This document shows positions 36,015-36,719 of a DNA stretch of 64,000 bases, piece after piece; the stretch's first letter is position 1; the number at the start of each line of letters is the position of its first letter. Source of the stretch: a virus. Taxonomy: Duplodnaviria > Heunggongvirae > Uroviricota > Caudoviricetes. Position numbers and translations under genes: made by a program. The notes under the pieces are model-generated. The model saw nothing but the letters and a program-made list of their open reading frames with translations. It made no database searches and had not been told where the DNA came from. Location of the stretch: IMG/VR virus record IMGVR_UViG_3300017971_000186. One strand, written 5' to 3'.

Positions 36015-36719
36015 TTATATCGAATCCAACATATTACTCACTTCTGACTCAAATGTACTAATATTCCTATTAATTTGATTTCTTCTATTGTATCTGTCTG
36101 GTTCCTCCAATAGCTGACGTATTTCAAAATCCGAAAGATCGGCTCCTAAAATCTTTTTCATATTATTTCTTATAGGAACAGACATATTAGCTATCTCATC
36201 AACCCTATCCGAAGAACGCCAGATGGAACCTCCTAATGCGCTGATTTCATAATTTCTAAACTGATCATTTGGAGAACGTCTCAATATGAAATCATTCTCG
36301 TGTAAGCTATTGAATTTATGTAAATCATCAAGTTTTTTATAAAACATTTTAGCAAATGTCCAAGGCAAAACCTGAAAGTCATTTAGTTCCTGGTTATTTT
36401 TAGGAATTCCATAGTCAATAACAACGCAAGCCATTCTAAAAAGGGGTTTTCCCTTTTTTTCACAACAAATTTCTTGTCTACCATTCTTGGATTTACATAG
36501 GAAATAACGATTATGGAAATGAACATTTGTAGCTACAAATAATTTGGAAGGATCTTCATAAACAATACCTACTCTACGAATTGAATCAAGTGGGGGTCTA
36601 AAAAGGGCAAATTTTAATTCTTTGCTATTTAAACTATTGTTCTCAAAACCAAAAGTATGGATTTTCTCCTCTTTTTTTGGATCAGGTTTTTTACCTACAG
36701 CTATTTGATAACGATCCAT
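36015..36719 (-). CDS. leader-family protein ('MDRYQIAVGKKPDPKKEEK')
   Basis: Shares the N-terminal leader with the 25.3-28.4 kb cluster. Located on the other side of the MVP gene. Confidence 0.5.
   Translation of the reverse strand: MDRYQIAVGKKPDPKKEEKIHTFGFENNSLNSKELKFALFRPPLDSIRRVGIVYEDPSKLFVATNVHFHNRYFLCKSKNGRQEICCEKKGKPLFRMACVVIDYGIPKNNQELNDFQVLPWTFAKMFYKKLDDLHKFNSLHENDFILRRSPNDQFRNYEISALGGSIWRSSDRVDEIANMSVPIRNNMKKILGADLSDFEIRQLLEEPDRYNRRNQINRNISTFESEVSNMLDSI

Follow-up and report, generated by a model that had tools for sequence, protein, structure and literature searches.

The locus analysed here raises the question of where proteins with a short, shared N-terminal leader are directed when their genes lie on both sides of a gene for a major vault protein (MVP) homolog. 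The window, that is, the whole stretch of DNA that was analysed (64 kb), is part of a huge phage of ~470 kb, whose genes include those for a PolA with a LAGLIDADG insert, a primase, DnaB-like and SNF2 helicases, and a sigma-like factor. The initial annotation had interpreted the arrangement as a shell protein plus tagged cargo, in the manner of encapsulins, and had considered the AAA ATPase encoded next to the target open reading frame (ORF) a conceivable unfoldase or loader.

According to its translation, the target ORF begins with MDRYQIAVGKKPDPKKEEK, and three parts could be distinguished in it:

36015..36719, minus strand: target ORF, leader-tagged paralog of a single-stranded DNA-binding protein (SSB), 234 aa, with ATG at 36719 and stop at 36015-36017
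36684..36719, minus strand: leader peptide of the target, residues 1-12, MDRYQIAVGKKP, matching the 38-protein profile M-N-R-Y-D-I-A-L-G-K-K-P
36663..36683, minus strand: charged/Pro linker of the target, residues 13-19 (DPKKEEK), between the leader and the first residue alignable to leaderless homologs
36015..36662, minus strand: body of the target, residues 20-234 plus stop, predicted gp32-type ssDNA-binding protein (AF2 model and Foldseek)

When the window was translated in all six frames, the strict motif R[YF][DEQ]I[AILV] was encountered exactly seven times, and in every case it sat at residue 3 of an ORF on the minus strand (starts at 36719, 28399, 27890, 27594, 27175, 26393 and 25702); mononucleotide shuffles of the window gave ~1.9 matches anywhere. 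Clustering of N-termini added a member with Gly at position 5, and all eight leader genes are present as called proteins in a public protein library. The description of the target as the eighth member of a leader family, starting with the same leader and linker as the cluster at 25.3-28.4 kb, was therefore confirmed, both by the count (seven genes in the cluster plus the target) and by the motif, M-x-R-[YF]-[DEQ]-I-x-x-[GN]-K. The genes of the cluster were the following:

27899..28399, minus strand: leader gene, 166 aa, GTG start, with a P-loop NTPase-like body (MNRYDIILGKDPPPAPPP..GSRNSGKTT; weak AAA_14/TK matches)
27591..27890, minus strand: leader gene, 99 aa (MNRYDILLNKKP)
27184..27594, minus strand: leader gene, 136 aa (MSRYDIIKGKKV), with a C-terminal domain in common with 26549..27175
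26549..27175, minus strand: leader gene, 208 aa (MGRFDIILNKRS)
26393..26536, minus strand: leader gene with Gly at position 5, 47 aa (MNRYGIVLNKEP; P0244), its stop overlapping the next ATG (TAATG at 26393)
25695..26393, minus strand: leader gene, 232 aa from the ATG at 26393 (MNRFDIALNKKK)
25307..25702, minus strand: leader gene with a degenerate leader, 131 aa from the ATG at 25702 (MDRFEIAVHFQN)

Orthologs of these genes were found in two close relatives of the window locus, L082, where the ortholog of 27899..28399 retains the leader, and L083, where that of 25307..25702 is 68% identical. Every gene from ~23.3 to 59.5 kb of the window lies on the minus strand, in agreement with the co-directional arrangement described initially, and promoter and terminator scans of the window gave signals at or below the shuffle level. 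The target is surrounded by genes for a NADAR protein, a DUF5662 protein, two secreted paralogs, an HTH protein and MVP. These surroundings are an accessory region, and in the close relatives the corresponding region contains Lar and a DNA methylase. Two further neighbours are central to the question:

30776..33217, minus strand: full-length MVP homolog, 813 aa (Pfam MVP_shoulder 1.4e-23, Vault_3 3e-11)
36722..38311, minus strand: Classical-clade AAA ATPase (PF00004 3.9e-24; phrog_8638 9e-82), separated from the downstream target by a 2-nt spacer

The positional claims made for both neighbours were accurate: the MVP gene is bracketed by leader genes, all eight of which lie within 5.5 kb of it on one side or the other, and the stop of the AAA gene is 2 nt from the ATG of the target.

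The consensus of the leader, MNRYDIALGKKP, comprises 12 residues (profile M-N-R-Y-D-I-A-L-G-K-K-P-P). Only residues 1-12 are common to the eight window genes and ~30 ORFs found elsewhere, the bodies being mostly unrelated, and the motif was retained in orthologs with 47-56% identity. In the 38-protein family, the ~18 residues following the leader were rich in Pro, Lys and Glu (15.6, 14.8 and 10.5%, respectively, vs. 5.4, 2.8 and 6.5% in the bodies), and in the AF2 model of the target residues 1-34 were flexible, with a low-confidence short helix at residues 3-8. Upstream of the eight window starts, the DNA was unrelated. In a set of 39 leaders, taken from the window and from other contigs, Arg3 was encoded by CGT (11), AGA (15), AGG (3), CGA (4), CGG (5) and CGC (1), while all six Leu codons were used for Leu8 and all four Gly codons for Gly9. 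Since all synonymous codons are used and the upstream DNA is unrelated, the leader is conserved as a peptide, not as a nucleic acid, and, judging from codon usage, it is under peptide-level selection. The leader is a modular, portable, peptide-selected tag on a flexible linker. No published description of it was found, and a 2026 review on jumbo phages is silent on vault proteins, targeting sequences and propeptides.

Regarding the body of the target, searches against Pfam and PHROGs yielded no match, and a single-sequence homology search recovered one relative, in which the leader is retained. The family was uncovered by a profile search after a leaderless homolog, a 207-aa protein in L036 whose residue 4 aligns to residue 20 of the target, was added to the query; at least 167 homologs were then obtained. 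Of the 120 family members listed, 117 were leaderless and 205-213 aa long, and only P0001 (the target), P0002 and P0010 carried the leader. A sequence search of the PDB with the SSB profile returned only noise (e.g., hemocyanin), so that a fold search was needed. The AF2 model of the target (mean pLDDT 79) was confident in the core (residues ~40-210, pLDDT ~90), and its top five PDB matches in Foldseek were RB69/T4 gp32 cores, including 2a1k, 1gpc and 8gme (probability 0.97-1.0; for 2a1k_B, E 6.6e-4 and probability 1.0). On this model, the body of the target is a gp32-type SSB fold, with ssDNA binding as its predicted activity. Four residues (H67, C75, C85 and C86) were invariant across 42 homologs. 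They resemble the zinc ligands of gp32 (His64/Cys77/Cys87/Cys90), and the invariant His and three Cys are consistent with a putative zinc site like that of gp32.

A leaderless, canonical SSB copy (P0061) is encoded on the same phage contig (Ga0180437_10000019), 245 kb away, within a ligase-RecD2-SSB-RecA-SbcC-SbcD-Cas4 module that is syntenic with L036. Because the phage encodes this canonical copy, the target can be regarded as an extra, diverged and re-addressed SSB paralog. The likeness to T4/RB69 gp32 thus concerns the fold of the target body and the location of the canonical paralog in a recombination/replication module, whereas the differences lie in the low identity of the target (12-14%), in the shorter length of the family (~207 aa), and in the N-terminal address tag of the second paralog, no such tag being known for gp32.

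Outside the window, the leader heads the ~30 ORFs mentioned above in ~13 metagenomic or viral contigs with GC contents of 33-50%, often in tandem arrays. A search of 185,579 cellular genomes (596 Gbp) gave one credible match, on a Fibrobacterota MAG contig; on this sequence evidence the leader is phage-restricted, and the hosts of the leader-bearing huge phages are probably Fibrobacterota-like. With a profile of 30 aa built on the leader, an exhaustive HMMER search returned nothing beyond the proteins of the window itself and one major capsid protein (MCP) with a double leader, the motif being too short for a census. Two sets of candidates were judged chance matches and discarded, namely a DUF4249 protein of a bacterial contig (L024) and the AAA proteins of L056/L063/L074 that contain MGRYDITSGK.

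When all tagged proteins were scanned against PHROGs, the sole annotated family was 'major head protein', with four proteins matching phrog_2522 (up to 3e-30). These four proteins are MCP paralogs encoded in two independent contigs (L065 and L067), which are 6-kb fragments distantly related to the window phage, the MCP of the latter being encoded outside the window. One of them (L065:3959-4930) matched the phage G gp27 MCP (PDB 6wkk) with E = 1.2e-40, query residues 52-321 aligning to chain residues 7-279, with further matches to MCPs annotated in phage G and in Mycobacterium cluster C phages, while a homology search with a single MCP as query returned the query itself only. In the alignment, the leader and a Pro/Lys-rich linker of 30-57 residues precede the position at which the MCPs of phage G and LR745208 start, and in one tagged MCP (L067:3736-4722) the leader is doubled in tandem. 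An N-terminal extension is lacking from the MCPs of phage G and LR745208 and likewise from 79 more MCPs of that type; no leader genes were found in 906 kb around those 79 MCPs, nor near the MCPs of phage G and LR745208. The presence of the same leader on MCP paralogs points to the phage head, rather than to a vault, as its destination.

The MVP homolog itself withstood scrutiny. Its sequence matched rat and human MVP co-linearly (E ~3e-17), and its AF2 model, with β-repeat domains, a shoulder and a cap helix of 118 residues, matched full-length vault chains in Foldseek (E ~1e-28). On this basis, the window protein is a genuine full-length homolog. Phage MVPs were previously reported in silico (bioRxiv 10.1101/2023.11.10.566534), and the homologs found here (>5,500) were mostly bacterial.

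That the leader serves to load its carriers into a vault-like MVP cage, with the AAA ATPase perhaps acting as unfoldase or loader, was the reading of the initial annotation, and we consider it very improbable. It has in its favour the full-length MVP with its repeats, shoulder and cap helix, the proximity of all eight window leader genes, in a layout kept in L082 and L083, and the occurrence of a separate tag family next to MVP in a distant 462-kb phage (L014/L003), where seven genes whose products have N- and C-terminal tags in common lie 4-9 kb from the MVP gene. Nevertheless, a survey of the gene neighbourhoods of MVP homologs, which the initial annotation had recommended, showed that MVP occurs without genes tagged in this way: no leader ORF was found within ±10-20 kb at 13 MVP loci of more distant huge phages (37-47% identity, 462-kb and 735-kb GenBank genomes included), and two back-translated leader patterns had no matches in 11 MVP-bearing IMG/VR contigs (~2 Mb in total). 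Between those distant loci and the window, MVP alone is syntenic. The bracketing of MVP by leader genes was seen only in L082 and L083, where MVP is 75% and 68% identical, respectively, and it is not independent evidence because the whole region is syntenic there, i.e., the synteny is at the level of the lineage. Conversely, leader genes occur without MVP in the contig sequence covered in L027, L036, L041, L065 and L067, including, in L027, a leader gene accompanied by the DUF5662 gene that abuts MVP in the window. MVP homologs are largely bacterial, the leader occurs in only a few phage lineages, and tagged major capsid proteins are implausible as vault cargo. Of the proposal of a shell with tagged cargo, the portable tag on unrelated bodies was therefore retained, and MVP as the shell was not, given the 13 loci without leader. 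The eukaryotic vault, in which an MVP shell holds PARP4 and TEP1, resembles the window in that a full-length MVP homolog lies amid tagged genes, but its cargo is bound via an INT domain of ~160 aa, compared with a leader of 12 aa here, and the comparison of loci tied MVP to the leader in one lineage only. An extended version, in which the leader would be the loading signal of a phage vault-like MVP compartment, perhaps serviced by the Cdc48-like AAA, and each MVP-bearing lineage would possess its own tag, is if anything slightly harder to credit. SPFH cages (HflK/C) enclose the AAA protease FtsH, which would be a parallel for MVP plus AAA. Under the assumption of one tag per lineage, the unrelated MKYIKEYEEFI.../...NADDFGFFDN family beside MVP in LR756500 would count as a second case.

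Other explanations dispense with a vault and with encapsidation altogether. The leader might address its carriers to a cytoplasmic hub, as clients of the Cdc48-like AAA or of a chaperone, or by recruitment to assembly or replication sites, capsid subunits included, and this we regard as unlikely, though still worth entertaining. An unfoldase-clade AAA gene does abut the target with a 2-nt spacer (the best PDB matches of its product being the D2 domain of Cdc48/p97 and VAT), the tagged bodies look more like enzymes or DNA-binding proteins than like classic structural proteins, and the leader is placed at the extreme N-terminus on a flexible linker, like many AAA+ recognition tags. Capsid proteins often require dedicated chaperones, as the T4 capsid protein gp23 requires gp31. 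However, the adjacency is lost in the close relative L082, where the gene upstream of the target's ortholog encodes another SSB paralog instead of the AAA, no AAA homolog was found at the other leader-bearing loci compared, and no other conserved neighbour was found. The AAA ATPase was consequently rejected as an obligate partner of the target, and the suggestion of an unfoldase or loader lost its basis in conserved gene order. Alternatively, the shared start could be a nucleic-acid element (a translational operator, a promoter or a recombination handle) or the relic of gene-cassette duplication. The leader genes are in tandem and partly overlap (e.g., the TAATG at 26393), and there is precedent in T4, where RegA-type operators overlap start codons. 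Against this stand the unconserved upstream DNA, the use of all synonymous codons for conserved residues across lineages of 33-50% GC, the retention of the motif in the diverged orthologs, and the internal duplication of the leader in L067. An explanation at the nucleic-acid level was rejected on the codon evidence, and we assign a negligible probability to the nucleic-acid element and the duplication relic alike.

The reading that we tentatively favour, at somewhat short of even confidence, is that the leader is a capsid- or prohead-targeting peptide, functionally like the capsid-targeting sequence (CTS) of T4, by which diverse proteins including the SSB paralog would be packaged. N-terminal extensions of HK97-fold capsid proteins, such as the HK97 delta domain and the T4 gp23 propeptide, face the procapsid interior. 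Given this orientation and a tag common to MCP paralogs and small proteins, a peptide for head assembly or targeting would therefore be the best explanation. The leader would dock any carrier, MCP paralogs included, onto a common partner in the assembling procapsid, for which the scaffold or core, the protease, the portal, or the leaders of neighbouring subunits are candidates. Carriers that are not shell proteins (the SSB paralog, the P-loop NTPase and the small proteins) would become enclosed in the head and would probably enter the next cell with the DNA, the leader being cut off by the maturation protease, and the packaged SSB paralog may have an early role in the infected cell. The nearby MVP and AAA genes would be neighbours in a variable accessory region rather than partners. 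We infer prohead docking, cleavage, ejection and the early role of the SSB by analogy. Several observations weigh against head targeting. The tagged MCPs of L065 and L067 could be accessory copies and not shell builders, and packaging would be unusual for an SSB and for a P-loop NTPase. By inspection, a consistent protease site (e.g., x-x-Glu) was not found at the SSB and MCP junctions. Moreover, the window leader genes are co-directional with HTH, sigma-like and replication genes, with no recognisable head module among them.

The precedent is well characterised in T4, whose internal proteins have diverse bodies sharing only an N-terminal CTS of 10-19 residues that leads them to the prohead core; this sequence suffices to package foreign proteins and is removed by gp21, and the shell proteins gp23 and gp24 bear N-terminal propeptides too (PMC9026906, PMC3012670). 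As with the CTS of IPI/IPII/IPIII and Alt, the leader is a short N-terminal peptide (12 residues plus linker here, 10-19 aa in T4), it is the only common part of unrelated, fast-evolving and often tandem genes, extensions of this kind are present on head shell proteins as well, and the setting is one of accessory or counter-defence genes (NADAR in the window, Lar and the methylase in its relatives). In contrast, MNRYDIALGKKP and MKTYQEFIAE share only Met1, Tyr4 and an acidic/amide position 5. Since there is no sequence homology, the leader would be a functional analogue only and not a member of the CTS family. Further differences are that the identical tag occurs here on MCP paralogs, whereas the gp23 propeptide of T4 differs from the CTS, that no cleavage site of the L/I-x-E type was identifiable in the leader proteins, and that an SSB paralog and a P-loop NTPase are among the putative cargo. 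The leader itself is apparently undescribed, and, in the best reading by analogy, the kind of element it may represent, a portable head-targeting leader, is already known from T4.

Two further systems can be compared with the proposed head-targeting leader. Cargo-loading peptides of encapsulins are also short and conserved, with a flexible Pro-rich linker, diverse cargo and an HK97-fold destination, which for the leader is the one proposed here. They differ in binding the shell protein and in being usually C-terminal, while the leader is N-terminal and is found on a shell-type protein itself; as the shell-type protein is itself tagged, the receptor would be a third component or the tag, unlike in encapsulins, and no encapsulin-type operon is present here. 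In giant phages of the phiKZ-like/SPN3US type, many diverse proteins enter the head by way of N-terminal regions that can be cleaved and later pass into the host by ejection, as proposed here for the tagged proteins, but their propeptides share a protease site and not a leader sequence, and those phages belong to another lineage.

The analysis removes a tempting but unsupported tie between phage MVP genes and tagged cargo. If head targeting holds true, a clade of uncultivated huge phages would own a portable 12-residue packing signal that arose independently of that of T4, and sequence alone would be enough to list the packaged, and probably injected, proteins of phages that cannot be cultured. 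Such a signal would also serve as a compact tag with which foreign proteins are loaded into large capsids. The tagged SSB paralog would then be the most unusual cargo of the leader, and a new class of co-injected proteins would be predicted, in which an SSB meets the incoming DNA.

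In the window, the genes around the major vault protein (MVP) homolog (30776..33217, minus strand), on the side of the leader-tagged SSB paralog (36015..36719, minus strand) and on the opposite side, were the following:

30324..30776, minus strand: DUF5662 gene, overlapping the MVP stop codon
33292..34128, minus strand: NADAR-domain protein (1.5e-51), 75 nt upstream of MVP
34366..34935 and 34966..35625, minus strand: tandem pair of paralogs whose N-termini resemble signal or lipoprotein sequences, between the SSB paralog and MVP

The MVP-DUF5662 pair was retained in both close relatives syntenic with this region (L082 and L083), and a DUF5662 homolog was located 4.8 kb away from MVP in a distant 735-kb phage (L015), while another contig (L027) encoded DUF5662 without MVP. 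The two tandem paralogs, for which no family match was found, were likewise retained in L082 and L083 (66-75% identity). The NADAR protein carries three tandem NNTMNNEN(R/K)R repeats in its C-terminal half, and a NADAR protein sharing 61% identity with it was encoded close to leader genes in contig L016. As NADAR enzymes process ADP-ribose adducts, a counter-defence role is suggested for this protein.

When the MVP model was searched by fold, vault chains were followed in the ranking by SPFH cages (HflK/C, prohibitin, flotillin and stomatin). HflK/C encloses the AAA protease FtsH, and in the window 3.5 kb separate MVP from a classical AAA gene; no comparative support for a link between MVP and this AAA gene was found.

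Among the leader-tagged proteins, two had a common C-terminal module:

26549..27175 and 27184..27594, minus strand: leader-tagged proteins sharing RGxLHxHPxxQxRLN..HVIVxRGDWExAR

Both also bear a G(V/I)DIGxxDSE motif directly past the linker, and module and motif were found too in the L082 and L083 orthologs. Signs of active tag shuffling were detected in two other contigs, namely a tagged major capsid protein (MCP) paralog in which the leader occurs twice, at residues 1 and 33 (L067:3736-4722), and a 73-aa ORF in which the leader is joined only to the apparent C-terminal strand of MCP (L065:4930-5151). A five-gene leader array in a 64.5-kb contig was interspersed with three genes:

L041:1425-2684, 6499-7695 and 12119-12835: TnpB/IS605-OrfB-like genes

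A second tag family, unrelated to the leader, was observed beside an MVP gene in a 462-kb phage (LR756500.1; L014:26354-31769), where seven genes located 4-9 kb from MVP share an MKYIKEYEEFI... N-terminus and six of them a ...NADDFG(F/L/M)(F/L)DN C-terminus, their bodies (two LRR proteins and five others) being otherwise dissimilar; the arrangement recurs in L003.

Two further genes of the window were annotated:

42143..45931, minus strand: family A DNA polymerase of 1262 aa, its sequence split by a LAGLIDADG domain (residues about 812-877)
23328..24158, minus strand: phage-encoded DUF4423 protein (Fibrobacter-type paralogous family)

The LAGLIDADG domain is probably an intein or homing-endonuclease insertion. 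The DUF4423 protein, together with the sole credible leader match in cellular genomes, on a Fibrobacterota MAG contig (L086), hints at a Fibrobacterota host for the phage.

In L082, two diverged SSB paralogs occur in tandem (L082:2-364 and L082:357-1046), the upstream one, cut by the contig end, showing 39% identity to the SSB paralog of the window; the SSB subfamily is thus undergoing expansion in this lineage.
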